Below, piece after piece: positions 1 to 43,722 of a DNA stretch of 44,713 nt; within the stretch, counting starts at the first letter, position 1, and every line of letters begins with the position of its first letter. The stretch is from positions 1 to 44,713 of IMG/VR virus record IMGVR_UViG_3300023059_000291, one strand, 5' to 3'. The notes under the pieces are model-generated. The model was not told the origin of the DNA. It was given only the letters and a program-made list of their open reading frames with translations, and did not search any database. Origin of the DNA: a virus (Duplodnaviria; Caudoviricetes). Both the position numbers and the translations under genes were made by a program.

Positions 1-657
1 ATGTGTGCCAATTATGAACCTATCAGTAAAGATCATGTTCACCTTTTAGATCTCTTTGAACCAACTTTCGATTATAAGAAAGATGTTTATCCAGGTTATG
101 ACTGCCCTCTTATATTTTCTAAAGATGGCCACATTGAATGGCGACAAGTAAAGTTCGGCATGATTCCACCATGGAACCATGATTTAAAGTTTTCAAAGTA
201 TACCTACAATGCCAGAACTGAAACTGTTGATAAAAAACCTAGCTTTCGCCACGCATGGTCTAAAAGCCAATTCGCGCTAATACCTGTAGAAAAAATTTAT
301 GAGCCTAGATATTTGAATGGCAAAGCGGAAAGATGGGGAATATATCGCGAAGACGGCTTACCTTTTACAGTTGCTGCTATTTATGATTCGACTGTGATTG
401 ATGGGCAGCAAGTAAGATCTATGTCGATGCTGACAATTAATGCTGATAATCACCCTTTCATGTCACAGTTTCATAAACCAGAAGATGAGAAAAGATCTAT
501 CATCGTTATTCCTGAAGAGTATCGGGAAGACTGGCTAAACTGCCAAAATGAAGATGCTAATCAATTTTTCTTTGAAATGCCACTTGGTGAATTTGCTGCC
601 AACTATTTTCCTAAACCAAATAAAAAACCGCCTGCCCCAGCAAACGGTTCTAATTAG
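1..657 (+). CDS. yedK: SOS response-associated peptidase (SRAP/YedK/HMCES family), abasic-site protecting protein
   Basis: N-terminal Met-Cys, YNARTET motif, YE and conserved His (FHKP); lies next to umuDC as is typical for SRAP genes. Confidence 0.9.
   Translation: MCANYEPISKDHVHLLDLFEPTFDYKKDVYPGYDCPLIFSKDGHIEWRQVKFGMIPPWNHDLKFSKYTYNARTETVDKKPSFRHAWSKSQFALIPVEKIYEPRYLNGKAERWGIYREDGLPFTVAAIYDSTVIDGQQVRSMSMLTINADNHPFMSQFHKPEDEKRSIIVIPEEYREDWLNCQNEDANQFFFEMPLGEFAANYFPKPNKKPPAPANGSN
622..649 (-). terminator. Intrinsic terminator for the small-peptide transcript
   Basis: Minus strand AACCGTTTGC-TGGG-GCAGGCGGTT followed by a T-run; the stem needs G-U pairs that form only on the minus strand. 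Confidence 0.7.
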
Positions 658-680
658 TCTTAAATTAAAATATTAATACA

Positions 681-764
681 TTAACACATAATAAAATCAG
701 CTACTTGAATTACGTCAGCTATTAAGCTTAGTAATTTCACGCCGAAGATAATTATCTTCGTCAT
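681..764 (-). CDS. 27-aa hydrophobic peptide MTKIIIFGVKLLSLIADVIQVADFIMC, TisB/DinQ-like type I toxin candidate
   Basis: Translated by hand; AAAAGGAG SD (771-778) 6 nt before ATG; single amphipathic helix; downstream terminator; absent from the ORF track. Confidence 0.75.
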   Translation of the reverse strand: MTKIIIFGVKLLSLIADVIQVADFIMC

Positions 765-1120
765 AGCAATCTCCTTTTAAAGAGACATTGCCTTGTGCCA
801 TGTTTTGCGTTTTAATACATCTAATGCATAACGAAAGTCGTCATCGGTAAACGCGTCGTTGGTAGCGTCGCAGTTACACTCGTAAAAGCTGATCGTATCG
901 CAACATCAGTCAGCAGTAGTAAGCATTGTTGGTAGCATTGCTCTCTACTGTAAATGGTATGACACAAGTCAATGCAGGTTTATATTCCTCCCCCAGTCGA
1001 TGTTCCCGGTAAAGAATTTTCGACTGTGTGGGGGTTTCAAAATTCCTTCTCAACTTCCCACTTCTGCTGTCGTGGTTATCTAAAAAGGATAAACACAAGA
1101 AATAAAATCTATCCTTGTGT
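765..1120 (-). ncRNA. Long structured 5' leader of the peptide gene, with possible overlapping + strand antisense RNA
   Basis: Hairpins at about 766-791 (covers SD), 847-877, 913-949, 991-1034 and 1093-1120; two share the loop CTACCAA/TTGGTAG with compensatory stem changes. Confidence 0.6.
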
Positions 1121-1126
1121 GTAATC

Positions 1127-1155
1127 AAGATATGAGATTTCCATCTATATATCAA
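1127..1155 (-). promoter_or_regulatory. Putative sigma70 promoter for the leader/peptide transcript
   Basis: Minus strand TTGATA-N17-TATCTT, inside an inverted repeat TCAAGAT...ATCTTGA (1125-1161). Confidence 0.45.
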
Positions 1156-1240
1156 TCTTGACTTTTTACTTATTTTTCAACTGTATGATTGATAAAGAGA
1201 TAGCATGGCAAAGCTATTAAAAAACATTTATAGATAAGTT

Positions 1241-1435
1241 TGTGGATAACCCTATAATCAAGAACTTAGATACAAATAGTTCTTGAAGTGACTCTTTTTT
1301 TTATAATTTTTTTTGTTACTTTTTTCATTCTCTAACTCCAAGTTTACAATGTAAATGTGTGTATATAGAGAATTATTTTCTGACCAAATGCACAGTAAGA
1401 CACGTCAATTTTTGACTTCTACTTGTTTATCCACA
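1241..1435. promoter_or_regulatory. Two inverted perfect DnaA boxes
   Basis: TGTGGATAA at 1241-1249 and TTATCCACA at 1427-1435 flank an AT-rich spacer. Confidence 0.5.
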
Positions 1436-1474
1436 GATTTTTAAATTTGAAATTAAGCCAAGCTCTAGCATATC

Positions 1475-1499
1475 ATTTGATTCTGTAACGAAATCAAAT
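1475..1499. promoter_or_regulatory. UmuDAb-type DNA-damage operator upstream of umuD
   Basis: ATTTGATT-CTGTAACGA-AATCAAAT palindrome; TTGAT-N11-ATCAA with TGTAAC core resembles the recalled Acinetobacter UmuDAb site TTGAAAATGTAACTTTTTCAA. Confidence 0.75.
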
Positions 1500-1512
1500 C
1501 AAGGGGAATGCT

Positions 1513-2013
1513 ATGAGTGATATTGTACCGTCCATCATTGAGATAAAGCACTATCTCAATCAATCTATTGTTTTAGCTGATGTTATCTCAATTAAGCTCA
1601 TAATTCCTTCCACTCAAATGTTAATTCCTTACGCATTAGAAAAAATTAATGCTGGCTTCCCCTCTCCTGCACAAGACTATATAGACAAAGCGCTCGATAT
1701 GAACGAGCACTTAATAAAAAATGAAACTGCTACGTTTATTGTCAAAGTCGCTTCACTCTCAATGCTCAACGCTGGCATCGATATTGATGACGAGCTCATT
1801 GTTGATCGTAGCTTAGATGCTAAACACGGCGATATTGTCGTGGCACTAATCGATAATGATTTTACTGTTAAGCGCCTAATGATCGATGAAAAAGGCCAAT
1901 GGCTCAAAGCCGAAAACCCAGATTATAAAAATATCTATCTACAAGAAGGCCAGGAACTAATTATCTGGGGCGTTGTTACATGCATTATTAAAATGATAAG
2001 AAATAAGTCATGA
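1513..2013 (+). CDS. umuD: DNA polymerase V subunit UmuD (S24 peptidase)
   Basis: [10 protein letters not shown] cleavage motif, SM catalytic Ser, TVKRL catalytic Lys; overlaps umuC start. Confidence 0.95.
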
Positions 2014-3308
2014 AACATGAGAACAAAGTCTTTTTCTTGATTGACGTCAATAACATGTACGTTTCATGTGAGAGAGTCTTTGATCCCAGTTTGAACAATA
2101 AGCCTGTGATTGTTCTGAGCAACAATGATGGTTGTGCTGTGGCGCGCAGCAATGAATCAAAAGCGTTAGGCATTAAAATGGGTGTGCCGCTTTTCCAAAT
2201 CAAAGATATTGTTAAGCAACACAATGTAATTGTACTTTCAAGCAATTATGCAATGTATGCAGAAATGTCGAGACGTTTTCATAAGATACTTGCTTCCCAT
2301 GTAACAGGTGAAGAAGTTGAGCCCTACTCAATAGATGAATGCTTTGTTGATTTCACAGCTTATGAGAAACACTTTGATTTAGAAAAGGTTGGCCAAGAGA
2401 TGCGCCAACAAATTTGGAAATGGCTGGGCTTACCAGTTTGCGTCGGTATTGGCAGAAGTAAAACGGAATCAAAAATTGCAAATCATATTGCTAAAAAGAA
2501 CCCCGGCTTTAACAGCGTGTGCGATCTAGTATCCATGGATCCGTGCAATAAAGAGTATTACTTTGCTCAAATAGACGCTTCTGAAGTTTGGGGTGTTGGC
2601 CGTAAGCACTCAAAAAAGTTGCAAAGCATGGGAATTAATACAGTGCTTGATTTAGCCTGTGCTGAACCTCGAGAGATGCAAAAGAAATTTTCGATTGTCA
2701 TGGCTCGCACGATCTACGAGCTGCAAGGTATCTCATGCATTGAGATAGAACACACTCCCCCTTCAAAAAAACAAATTGTCGCTTCAAGGTCTTTCGGTGG
2801 TCGCGTAACTGAATTAACAGATCTAAAAGAAGCGATATCAATGTATGCGCAAGATGCATGTAAGCGGTTGAGAGATGAAGAGCTTTTATGTGGATGTATG
2901 ATTGCTTTCGTTCAGTCAAACCCTTTTGACCCAAATGTCCCTTTTTATAATAAGTCGATTACAGGTTCGTTTTCTGAGCCCACAGATTGCGCTATCGATT
3001 TCGTCAAAGCAGCGACAAGAATGTTGAACGATATCTATAAAGAAGGAATTAAATATAAGAAATGCGGTGTTGTGCTGACTTGTCTAGAACCAAAGTCTGG
3101 CCATACTTATGATCTCTTAACCGACTTTGCGCACATAGAGAAAAAGGAATATTTGATGAAAGCTATGGATGGTATCCATAGTAAATTTGGAAAGAAAAAA
3201 ATCAGTGTCGGACCTTGTTTTGTTCCAAATCGGAATTGGTCTATGTCGCGAGATAAGCTTAGTAGAAATCCGTTTAAGTGGGGTGAGTTATTGAAAATAT
3301 ATAATTAA
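2010..3308 (+). CDS. umuC: DNA polymerase V subunit UmuC (Y-family)
   Basis: [29 protein letters not shown] and SRSFG motifs; C-terminal WSM..LS. Confidence 0.97.
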
Positions 3309-3381: not shown

Positions 3382-3906
3382 CTATAACTTTTTTAAATCA
3401 AACTCCCTCAAAATTGTAGAGGCAAGTAATTGAACAGATAAATAGTCATACTCACTAAGATGAGGGTGAATTTTTGGTTCCCAATATCTACCATGGGCTA
3501 ACCAATTACGATAATCTAATGCCTTTTGAAACTTATCTATTAATGGTTTATTAGCAGGATAAGAAGCTTTCCATGCTTTTAAAATATCATCGACTAAAGA
3601 TGCTTTAGTTCCTTTTTGGTTATAAATTTTTCTTAAGCTTTTAGACAATTCATCCTTTAATTTCTTTTGGCGGCGTATTAAATAATCAATTTTAAAACTT
3701 GCTTCTAATAGAGTTAAAAACTCTAATGAAATCATACGCTCCAAACATCTTAGGTGGTCTTTGCGTTCTTGATGCAACTCAGTCCGTGAATATCCAATAA
3801 AATATCCACTCTTCTCATCAAAGTAATAATTTAAAGATGTAAGACTATGAAAGTAAAATTGTTCTATTTCTTCAATTGTAGAATGTTGATTTGAAAATTT
3901 AATCAT
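3382..3906 (-). CDS. HEPN-domain protein (predicted RNase)
   Basis: Helical protein with Rx4H motif RNWLAH and an upstream conserved Glu (LLEA); AT-rich; 4 nt from upstream gene. Confidence 0.7.
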   Translation of the reverse strand: MIKFSNQHSTIEEIEQFYFHSLTSLNYYFDEKSGYFIGYSRTELHQERKDHLRCLERMISLEFLTLLEASFKIDYLIRRQKKLKDELSKSLRKIYNQKGTKASLVDDILKAWKASYPANKPLIDKFQKALDYRNWLAHGRYWEPKIHPHLSEYDYLSVQLLASTILREFDLKKL

Positions 3907-3910
3907 TTCA

Positions 3911-4444
3911 TTAATTCACTAATCCCATTAACGATGCAAAAAAATTACTTTCATTAAATTCTATAAATTTTACGCCAGAAGCATTTCGATCGATTATTTT
4001 CCACGTCCAATTAACTTTATTTAAAGGTTCATGTTTTTCATTATCAGAAAGAACTTTAAAACTTATATTGAATCCATTTGAATTTATATCGGTTAAAATA
4101 AATTTTACAGAACCTTTTGGTCCGCTTAAGTCAATTCTTCCTTTGGTTCCTATCAACAACGTACCGATTGGATCAAGTGTAAGTGTTGCTCCTGCTAAAG
4201 AAATATCCATTTTATTAACGATATAGGATCCGATATGATCTTCAGTAATATTTTTTTCACTAAGTGAAATAGTTATAGATCCTTGATCAATATAAGGTTT
4301 TAACCATTCTTTTACTTGATTATAAAAAAATTCAATGAATTCTAACCATTCTTGCTTCTGCTTTTCCCAATCAATATCATTTTCTTCTCTGTTATATTTA
4401 TTTGCATTATCCTTCAAAAATTTTTCGAAATCTTTTCTGCTCAT
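3911..4444 (-). CDS. Hypothetical protein, operon partner of HEPN gene
   Basis: 177-aa ORF, N-terminal helix then beta-rich region (LDPIGTLLIGTKGRIDL); tightly coupled to 3382-3906. Confidence 0.7.
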   Translation of the reverse strand: MSRKDFEKFLKDNANKYNREENDIDWEKQKQEWLEFIEFFYNQVKEWLKPYIDQGSITISLSEKNITEDHIGSYIVNKMDISLAGATLTLDPIGTLLIGTKGRIDLSGPKGSVKFILTDINSNGFNISFKVLSDNEKHEPLNKVNWTWKIIDRNASGVKFIEFNESNFFASLMGLVN

Positions 4445-41626: not shown

Positions 41627-41673
41627 TTTTTAAGACCAATATTTTGTTTTATAAATATTTAAATGGATTATTC

Positions 41674-42492
41674 ATGATAATAGAAGAATTTATAAATGAA
41701 AACTTGTTATATGGTAGAGCTTTGATTGATCTACAAATTAGCAATAAAGGTTCAAACCCGTTATGGACGGGATTTGTTTCCACAAATCAGGGGGAATTTC
41801 CAGCCTACATTAAAAAATGCAGACAAGCGGATGGTTTATGTATTGAAATAATTAGCTCATTATTAGGGTTAATGCTCAATATTCCTATCCCAAAGCCTAT
41901 TCTTGTATTGGTTGAGCCGGGTCATCCACAAATTGCAGTTGATAAACCAACATTTCTATTTGGTTCCCAAATGTATGACATGCCTTCTTTTGAAAGATTC
42001 TTAATGGATCATGAGCTTAGCGAAGAGTGTTTACTTGATTACTCTGGATTACCTTCAATAGTAGCGTTTGATGAACTAATTGCCAATCCAGATAGAAATA
42101 ATACAAATATTCTTTATGATGGTGACTCATTTAGATTTATTGATCACGAGAAAGCTTTTTCTATTTCACAAGATCCAAGATTGCCAATCAATGAGATGAC
42201 TAAAGTTGGTAATATTTCAGATATTGTGCAGCACTATAAAGGTGAGAATGAAGTATACATTCACAAATTAATGTCAAAAATTAAGAAGTTGATTATTGAT
42301 GAAATGTCTGCGACAAATTGCGACTCACTTACTAAAAAAGCCAAAGAAAACATAATACTTAATGAATATAATGCAATTATTGAAAGAGTGAATGGCTTTT
42401 TAACTGCTAGACATAGTCTATTGGCAGTATTAATTGAAAATGCTATAACGCCACCACAACACCCTCAGCAATTGGATTTAATAGGAGGTTAA
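41674..42492 (+). CDS. HipA-like Ser/Thr kinase
   Basis: AYIKK Lys, IEI Glu, catalytic FDELIANPDRNNTNIL and IDHEKAF; ATG 41674 preferred. Confidence 0.85.
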   Translation: MIIEEFINENLLYGRALIDLQISNKGSNPLWTGFVSTNQGEFPAYIKKCRQADGLCIEIISSLLGLMLNIPIPKPILVLVEPGHPQIAVDKPTFLFGSQMYDMPSFERFLMDHELSEECLLDYSGLPSIVAFDELIANPDRNNTNILYDGDSFRFIDHEKAFSISQDPRLPINEMTKVGNISDIVQHYKGENEVYIHKLMSKIKKLIIDEMSATNCDSLTKKAKENIILNEYNAIIERVNGFLTARHSLLAVLIENAITPPQHPQQLDLIGG

Positions 42493-42493
42493 G

Positions 42494-43327
42494 ATGTTTG
42501 ATAAAATTTCATTCCCTTCTGCACCAAGTTTTTTTGCTGAATGGAGAACTGTATATTTTGAACCTATTCCAAATAGTGGTGAACGTATTGCTATTTTGGT
42601 AACAATCAAAGATTTGAATGGAAAAATTGAAATTTTTGATGCGTTACATCCTACAGTTATTGATAGCTTATATGGAACAAAAGCATCTTCATTTAATGGT
42701 TACATCAAATTAATAAAAGCAAATATTTTAAAGAATAATGGTGAATCAACCCTTGATGGCGTAATCATTGGTGATTGGCATGCTTCACAATCAGAAAATA
42801 TTTACGGGATAGTTCGCCAAGCACTCTATAAAACGGCTAGCTTAGGTTCAGTAGCTTTAAAGGGTTTGTTTGAGCAAGAAGATAGCCCGATTGAAAATGA
42901 ACAAGTTGATAGCCGCTGGTCAAAGCGCATTAAAAATGCGGTATTAGAAATTGATCCATCGTATGAACATGCTTTTGACATAAAAATCCCTATAGGGAAA
43001 GATGTAAAAATTCCTTGTGGATTTCATACTGCGCGGTACTCTGCAAAATTTAATGTATGTACATCTCAAACAATTACTAGAATGAAATCAAATTTGATGG
43101 ATTTACAAATATTTGATTCTCATAATATTTCCAGCAATTATGATTTGATTATACAAATGCCAACAGATGAGAACCTTCAGGTCTCATTAAAAACACTATC
43201 TCGAATGAGAGAAAACATTGAGCTTTTAAAAGAAGAAGTTGCATCAAAATCTCACATTCAAATATATACATGTAGTTCTGAAAAAGAAGGTGCAACAAGA
43301 ATTTTCGAAATGCTTAAAGCAAGTTAG
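42494..43327 (+). CDS. DUF3037-like protein, kinase partner
   Basis: WRTVYFEPIPNSGERIAILV N-terminal motif; GGAGG SD, 1 nt after kinase stop. Confidence 0.65.
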   Translation: MFDKISFPSAPSFFAEWRTVYFEPIPNSGERIAILVTIKDLNGKIEIFDALHPTVIDSLYGTKASSFNGYIKLIKANILKNNGESTLDGVIIGDWHASQSENIYGIVRQALYKTASLGSVALKGLFEQEDSPIENEQVDSRWSKRIKNAVLEIDPSYEHAFDIKIPIGKDVKIPCGFHTARYSAKFNVCTSQTITRMKSNLMDLQIFDSHNISSNYDLIIQMPTDENLQVSLKTLSRMRENIELLKEEVASKSHIQIYTCSSEKEGATRIFEMLKAS

Positions 43328-43462: not shown

Positions 43463-43533
43463 TAATAATCATAAACAACAAAAAGCCCCGAAACTTTGGA
43501 CGGAGACGGGGCTTTGCATAACGCGAGGTAAGT

Positions 43534-43722
43534 ATGAAACAAAACCCTATTCCTAGTCAAACTACATCACGCCTATATCAACACCCTACTGTTGAAGAAC
43601 AGCGCCCTTCTCGTTTCGCCACCATTAAAGCGAATGTAATCGACTTTCTAATATTCATTGCCCTTTCATTCGTTCTTTGGGTGATTGCCGTAGCAGCTGC
43701 ATCTTGGATGATGGGAGGCTAA
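43534..43722 (+). CDS. Small membrane protein (early left)
   Basis: GAGG SD; C-terminal TM helix. Confidence 0.7.
   Translation: MKQNPIPSQTTSRLYQHPTVEEQRPSRFATIKANVIDFLIFIALSFVLWVIAVAAASWMMGG

Follow-up and report, generated by a model that had tools for sequence, protein, structure and literature searches.

The window analysed here, a provirus record of 44,713 nt (IMG/VR IMGVR_UViG_3300023059_000291; Duplodnaviria, Caudoviricetes), carries between its SRAP (yedK) and umuDC genes a minus-strand unit that encodes a 27-residue peptide of a real, unnamed family. We regard the unit as probably a type I toxin-antitoxin system and, provided that it is one, judge coupling of its expression to stress to be probable as well. 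The fuller proposal, that this type I toxin-antitoxin family is new and responds to the state of replication with no LexA involved, we consider evenly balanced. The unit and its surroundings comprise the following features.

1–657, plus strand: SRAP (yedK) gene (PF02586, E 1e-24); its last codons overlap the terminator of the peptide unit
622–651, minus strand: intrinsic terminator of the peptide mRNA (stem 624–651 plus U tail)
681–764, minus strand: peptide ORF of 27 aa, a predicted membrane toxin (conservation, coding signature, helix prediction)
762–795, minus strand: predicted hairpin sequestering the Shine-Dalgarno sequence (SD), which lies at 771–778 (folding)
782–801, minus strand: anti-SD strand, which doubles as 3′ strand of P2, a predicted long-range helix (folding)
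788–816, plus strand: conserved antisense promoter (−35 at 788–793, 17 nt, −10 at 811–816); predicted start near 823
823–1040, plus strand, 3′ end tentative: predicted cis-antisense RNA, the candidate antitoxin
959–975, minus strand: anti-anti-SD strand, the 5′ strand of helix P2 (folding)
959–986, plus strand: second antisense promoter candidate, poorly conserved (similar site in L004, L066 and L130 only)
990–1034, minus strand: hairpin P1, which has a CopA/CopT-like relative in phage early operons
1093–1138, minus strand: decayed NrdR box remnants, with C4 lost in both and a 14-nt linker (box rules as excerpted from PMC13584703)
1127–1155, minus strand: sense promoter TTGATA-17-TATCTT, homologous to the nrdA −35/−10; predicted start near 1120
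1126–1250, minus strand: block sharing about 80% identity with the promoter region of host nrdA (sequence comparison)
1229–1249, minus strand: DnaA box pair, laid out as in E. coli and Acinetobacter nrdA promoters
1403–1497, plus strand: umuDC control region, outside the insert (DdaA-like box 1403–1417, DnaA box 1427–1435, UmuDAb-like inverted repeat 1477–1497)
1513–3308, plus strand: umuD (1513–2013) and umuC (2010–3308) (Pfam)

The SRAP, umuD and umuC assignments were confirmed with Pfam. Upstream of umuDC (window 1403–1497), the DdaA-like box, a canonical DnaA box and the UmuDAb-like inverted repeat stand in series; for the inverted repeat we assumed an 11-nt spacer.

Peptide ORF and genomic setting

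A sequence-only reading of this DNA had described a complete minus-strand unit with promoter, leader, SD hairpin, 27-aa ORF and terminator, and each of these parts was recovered in its place. The terminator is the only one found (0.3 expected; fold z −4.35), with its stem at 624–651, and a hairpin plus U tract lies 3′ of the peptide ORF in 26/26 units. Folding of the whole unit (615–1120, z −5.3) upheld the long structured leader and type I toxin anatomy, and a candidate antitoxin was found besides; across the family, leaders are structured and 220–360 nt long. The claim that the SD is held in a stem fared less evenly: a local hairpin is predicted (z −2.3), but AAAA lies in its loop and GGAG is only partly paired.

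Relatives were fetched by the SRAP protein, hence without bias towards the peptide, and comprised the best 80 of 107 viral loci plus 17 genome loci. We analysed 26 units, leaving out L074 (a duplicate of L072), L123/L124, L154 and later finds. Entropy by codon position was 0.94/0.16/0.96 over 12 distinct cores from this peptide-independent search. The peptide frame is open in 21/21 distinct 23-codon cores, with stops in 15–21 of the 21 in the other five frames, and pN/pS is 0.51 over the 21 cores and 0.32 for the last 12 codons. By these codon statistics the 27-codon ORF is under coding constraint. Its conservation across Acinetobacter, which had been named as a check, was borne out in that the ORF keeps its coding signature and is intact in 15/15 SRAP-found relatives with the nrdA-like block (14 viral loci and L085). 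A near-invariant second codon position beside a varying third, and the lack of any downstream gene to attenuate, argue against a reading in which what matters is the RNA (as a phage sRNA) or the DNA sites (by titrating DnaA), with the ORF either incidental or encoding a leader peptide; despite strong structure throughout, first codons included, and two canonical DnaA boxes in 200 bp, we give that reading very little credence.

Family peptides have 27–30 residues, a GRAVY of 1.15–1.76, a net charge of −2 to +2 and a near-invariant A-D-x-x-Q-x-A-D core. As expected of the type I class, the ORF is conserved, coding and shorter than 60 aa, and a hydrophobic or amphipathic single helix is predicted. 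The amphipathic character claimed earlier agrees with a family-wide hydrophobic periodicity that peaks at 110 degrees, but for the window peptide by itself the hydrophobic moment is borderline (0.29, p 0.06). Among the polar residues said to fall on one helix face, K3, K10, D17 and Q20 do so, at 200–100 degrees, but D23 sits at the edge, at 40 degrees, giving an arc of 160. AlphaFold predicted one helix for a 30-aa family member (pLDDT 94), a value that is little informative at such short length.

The unit is present in 16/80 related prophage loci (best 80 of 107), in 8/247 Acinetobacter genomes and in two named plasmid records. The SRAP–umuD spacer is empty, at about 170 nt, in 53/80 viral loci and holds an insert in 27/80: 14 inserts are the unit with the same promoter block, two (L068 and L076) carry the peptide behind another promoter and 11 are other genes. 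Among seven scanned cargo proteins, taken from viral as well as genome loci, were two AbiH, two PIN_8, one PADLOC caspase match and one PdaC. By this comparison of loci, the unit occupies a swappable cargo slot common to AbiH, PIN and caspase-like genes, and it also resides on plasmids. Because the slot is swappable, the link of the unit to umuDC is not fixed. The earlier picture of a module with Pol V and SRAP is thus only partly right: it does not extend to the empty spacers, the other cargo or the plasmid-type copies without umuDC.

Across L004–L088, cargo at this site includes AbiH (L071, L088), PIN_8 (L078, L080; look-alikes in L083 and L087) and a caspase-like protein (L069; look-alike in L073), while that of L023, L042, L054, L064 and L082 has no assignment. 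The spacer is a variable hotspot worth mining for defence genes. The genome copies L126, L127 and L129 lie among plasmid-type genes, with umuDC absent within the 3 kb covered, and from this we infer a plasmid origin. Plasmid-type copies adjoin replication, resolvase and type II toxin-antitoxin genes, and the two named plasmid records have no annotation at the peptide match. The A. lwoffii plasmid copy (L154 4160–5191) is truncated at its 5′ end by an IS982 element; IS disruption is common among toxin genes.

Pattern and profile searches added five viral loci, 8/247 genus genomes (one being L085), two plasmid records and 4/120 metagenome loci (L195, L211, L212 and L249), the remaining 116/120 being rejected for long ORFs or no start. 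When 1.84 billion representatives were searched with a profile, eight matches came back; six were examined, and one was named, as a ‘hypothetical protein’ of A. dispersus. A wider family search of 401 sampled genomes yielded nothing new beyond the genus search besides two rejected matches. We also rejected L131–L152 as weak matches (E above 0.009; L131 and L133, on inspection, are antisense to other genes), L178 as antisense to a long ORF and without a start, L179 as a further weak match, and Vibrio phage matches at E 1–7. In L194 (6–202), the unit of a 42-nt tandem repeat matches the peptide core pattern by chance.

Pfam gave no name for the window peptide or 12 members, and NCBIfam and PHROGs gave no named family for 17 members, with one unnamed PHROG in 2/17 (E 8e-4). 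The peptide family had no match among PDB sequences, and its best ESM Atlas value, 0.76, is at chance level. Rfam named no RNA in window 400–1600; a MicF match (E 1.5) was set aside as covering merely the terminator. The earlier remark that no description of such a locus in Acinetobacter was known agrees with the paper titles and abstracts searched, and no described type I toxin-antitoxin family in the genus was found in the literature searched. The available portions of PMC11264685 and PMC8167048 make no mention of Acinetobacter.

Derivation of the sense promoter

The proposed TTGATA-N17-TATCTT promoter is weak by itself (10 promoter-like sites versus 4.3 ± 2.2 by chance), yet its −35/17/−10 register is kept in homologues and in host nrdA promoters. 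Window 1126–1250 matches A. baumannii chromosomes at 81%, directly upstream of a 944-aa ORF that we identified as NrdA from its sequence and its divergent response-regulator neighbour. By the position of the DnaA box (−129, −141 or −186), host nrdA promoters can be sorted into three types, and the window promoter matches the −129 type. Our survey of Acinetobacter nrdA promoters covered L003, L117–L121 and L181–L190; in L003 and L118, genes for a response regulator and a sensor kinase, which we take to be BfmRS, lie divergently to nrdA.

In 8/8 units with a host genome, the nrdA type of that host gives the best match, weakly so for L129; L123 was represented here by L007, a near-identical copy. 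Identity to the host type reaches 88% over 131 nt in L128 and 70% over 200 nt in L127. In the closest units the DnaA box pair, upstream tract, −35 and −10 are 75–88% identical to the host type, and what sets the copies apart is that the NrdR pair is lost and that they drive a peptide gene on a mobile element. The promoters of the window and L056 are 72% alike, and their leaders are no more alike than shuffles.

An NrdR box pair with a 15–16-nt linker is present in 16/16 nrdA promoters versus 0/26 units, as scored by the rules excerpted from PMC13584703. A canonical DnaA box is kept upstream in 23/26 units (missing in L125, L129 and L130), and the E. coli nrdA DnaA box pair has the same layout as that of the window. 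With strict patterns, UmuDAb and DdaA boxes were each found at 0/26 unit promoters, and a LexA-like pattern at 1/26, which is not the window promoter. DdaA was set aside as regulator of the unit, given the 26 promoters without its box and the fact that nrdA is not marked DdaA-regulated in the available part of PMC12392091; blastn of the unit promoter against E. coli returned a chance match only. These comparisons indicate that the unit promoter derives from the nrdA promoter of the host lineage, usually keeping the DnaA boxes and without the NrdR pair. We infer repeated capture or gene conversion of nrdA promoters, to which long co-divergence of unit and nrdA promoters is an alternative.

Acinetobacter is described as being without lexA in the available text of PMC3978071, which also gives a 7-fold induction of nrdA by mitomycin C in A. 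baylyi that requires neither recA nor umuDAb (see also PMC4807011 and PMC7273328). DnaA controls nrdAB in E. coli, where damage induces these genes independently of SOS (PMC8203912; bioRxiv 2021.05.20.444958). Should nrdA induction proceed via NrdR release, loss of the NrdR boxes would leave the promoter always on.

The third subfamily (L068, L076 and L249) has a different sense promoter and keeps the first codons of host ssb, including a 21-nt exact run in L249; ssb, too, is induced without recA or umuDAb (PMC3978071). A host donor for this promoter was sought and only short matches came up. The same three loci carry a half-site common to gyrA upstream regions, and their control is possibly of the DdaA type.

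These promoters bear on whether the unit serves plain addiction, that is, maintenance from a promoter that is not stress-responsive. Such a reading draws on the plasmid-type copies beside replication, resolvase and type II toxin-antitoxin genes, on the absence of DnaA boxes in 3/26 units and on the loss of NrdR boxes, which could remove the inducible part. It leaves unexplained why the nrdA-type promoter follows three host lineages, and it makes an odd coincidence of two damage-induced donors, nrdA and, in the third subfamily, ssb. With the prophage slot otherwise holding defence-like cargo, we consider plain addiction unlikely and retain the stress-coupled toxin-antitoxin reading.

Antisense promoter and leader folding

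We scored the opposite strand of each leader against an approximate sigma-70 matrix. An antisense promoter 51–69 nt ahead of the start codon ranks first of 198–337 positions in 17/26 units, and the site again ranks first in 3/3 later-found loci; by eye, L068 and L076 show it too. Its hexamers stand 17 nt apart, gap-free, while the spacer sequences differ between lineages. In subfamily 2 (8 units) the best candidate ranks only 4–5, and the peak of L107 lies elsewhere. The −10 (TTTAAT) is without the usual A2 and recurs as AATAAT in the third subfamily. By this ranking and register, a promoter on the opposite strand, directly before the ribosome-binding site (RBS), is conserved, and the window antisense RNA is predicted to start near 823 and to cover the leader up to hairpin P1. 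No clear conserved antisense terminator was seen among the units. P1 was rejected in that capacity, its U tract being absent in most units, and the 959–986 site was rejected as the main antisense promoter for want of conservation.

The −35 of the antisense promoter shares positions with the anti-SD strand and could thus owe its conservation to RNA pairing. This overlap, the weak signal in subfamily 2 and the missing conserved terminator would suit a toxin mRNA whose control needs nothing beyond its own folding or processing, or comes from an RNA acting in trans, with the antisense promoter as a by-product of conserved RNA structure. A −10 exactly 17 nt away, gap-free across unrelated spacers, and its AATAAT form in the third subfamily speak against such a by-product, which we hold to be quite improbable. 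We keep the cis-antisense RNA as candidate antitoxin.

In helix P2, the strand directly 3′ of P1 pairs with the strand before the SD over 7–12 bp, with differing sequences. Folding predicts that P2 competes with the SD hairpin, in the manner given for timP in the available text of PMC13000454. A simple helix finder placed P2 in overlap with the SD helix in only 13/26 loci. Blocking the P2 5′ strand raises the RBS opening cost by 0.8–4.7 kcal/mol, and this is the top 14-nt tile in 7/10 loci; the antisense footprint raises the cost in 24/26. In the ON state, the P2 strand would pair with the anti-SD strand and weaken the SD hairpin, and in the OFF state the antisense RNA would cover the P2 5′ strand and let the SD hairpin close, both by folding prediction. 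Predicted opening costs range from 3 to 16 kcal/mol, and the RBS is free at 0.16–0.58 in the ensemble and partly paired even in the ON fold. Since it is partly paired in free mRNA, translation may further depend on processing or a standby site.

Relatives of P1 occur in phage early operons, with an A tract before and a strong opposite-strand promoter after. On the antisense strand, CopA (CopA/CopT, RF00042) is the best Rfam match of an early-operon relative; the likeness stops at 22.6 bits (E 0.068, L159) and 14.8 bits against a cut-off of 60, and the setting is not replication control. The window P1 itself has no CopA match in Rfam. The P1 loop is inverted in L126 and probably in L129, which fits loop-loop recognition by a cis-antisense RNA; a U-turn logic lies behind recognition of this kind. 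At window 43480–43580 and in L159, L160, L162, L163, L171 and L172, an A-tract hairpin precedes an early-operon gene and an opposite-strand promoter lies over the start codon; CopA is again the best Rfam match. This hairpin is likely an undescribed CopA-like antisense RNA of Acinetobacter prophages.

Relation to known toxins and possible role

Membership in a TisB/DinQ-like family, as first proposed, did not hold: the peptide resembles both in size and hydropathy, but neither scores better against the family profile than when shuffled (TisB, 3.0 bits, p 0.22; DinQ, 5.0 bits, p 0.11). ShoB reached 6.4 bits with a shuffle p of 0.04, one of three tests, which falls short of homology. For Zor, TimP, Ibs, Hok and Ldr, library scans with Pfam, NCBIfam and PHROGs brought up no named family. 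The Q-x-x-D spacing attributed to TisB can be found, in that Q19, D22 and K26 of TisB align gap-free to the family Q, D and C-terminal R, but the alignment is not significant.

With tisB/istR-1 and dinQ/agrB the unit shares a short hydrophobic peptide (27–29 aa and GRAVY 1.6–1.9 there, 1.15–1.76 here), a long leader and, putatively, a tie to DNA damage. It differs in having no significant profile match and no LexA control and in residing on mobile elements. The tisB and dinQ antitoxin genes are separate and divergent, whereas here the predicted antitoxin overlaps the leader in cis; the region upstream of the unit is variable and AT-rich. The cis-antisense type I systems hok/sok and ldr/rdl likewise have an antisense promoter within the toxin leader, and plasmid and mobile carriage. 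They are set apart by the absence here of a Pfam or Rfam match, by our shorter peptide, by the nrdA-derived promoter and by their overlapping leader ORF, of which we saw no counterpart in the unit. The likeness to timP/timR is one of predicted leader layout: the SD lies in a hairpin, is freed by a competing long-range interaction, and the antitoxin binds the leader (PMC13000454). TimR, however, is divergent (PMC8167048), and timP requires a pseudoknot.

The near-invariant A-D-x-x-Q-x-A-D core suggests a specific contact surface and, with a net charge of −2 to +2 and no significant match to known toxins, could speak for a small membrane regulator in place of a depolarising toxin. Caulobacter SidA, for example, is a damage-induced division inhibitor. 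AciT is another such inhibitor (PMC13010146). A 220–360-nt structured leader, an RBS hairpin and a conserved antisense promoter usually mark genes that have to be kept silent (PMC13000454), however, and plasmid carriage fits a regulator less well. We thus regard a regulator as improbable and proceed with a toxin.

Under the type I toxin-antitoxin reading, stalled forks, or an incoming phage that disturbs host replication or transcription, would let the mRNA outrun the antisense RNA. The peptide would then enter the inner membrane and depolarise it, and the cell would turn dormant or abort the infection, to the benefit of the element. Defence and plasmid maintenance are both known roles of type I systems; the cargo slot suggests the former and the plasmid context the latter. 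We advance, as somewhat less likely than not, a broader idea, in which mobile elements of this LexA-less genus repeatedly capture stress-responsive promoters, drop dNTP-feedback sites and arm an antisense-controlled toxin as a DnaA-read tripwire. If true, the tripwire would fire once host replication is stalled by a lytic phage or by DNA damage; functionally it would be the equivalent of TisB, with another sensor, and the nrdA promoter would have been captured in three host lineages, with ssb perhaps in a fourth branch.

In Acinetobacter, without LexA, TisB-like damage-induced dormancy had no obvious route, and the unit is a candidate for one with its parts mapped. It would also exemplify how phages and plasmids take over a core host promoter in a lineage-matched way, the sites of one regulator being kept and those of another lost. 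A reporter on the unit promoter could help to tell the part of DnaA from that of NrdR in the damage response that the genus mounts without RecA or UmuDAb. There may further be a bearing on phage therapy, through abortive infection, and on the antibiotic tolerance of lysogens.

Two other gene pairs of the window deserve mention. At 3382–4444, two genes (174 and 177 aa) run convergent with umuC; neither has a Pfam match above cut-off or a PADLOC match. At 41644–43327, directly after the repressor gene, lie a HipA-like kinase (PF20613; PADLOC PDC-M66A, E 1e-14) and a 277-aa partner, which we put forward as a candidate phage defence pair.
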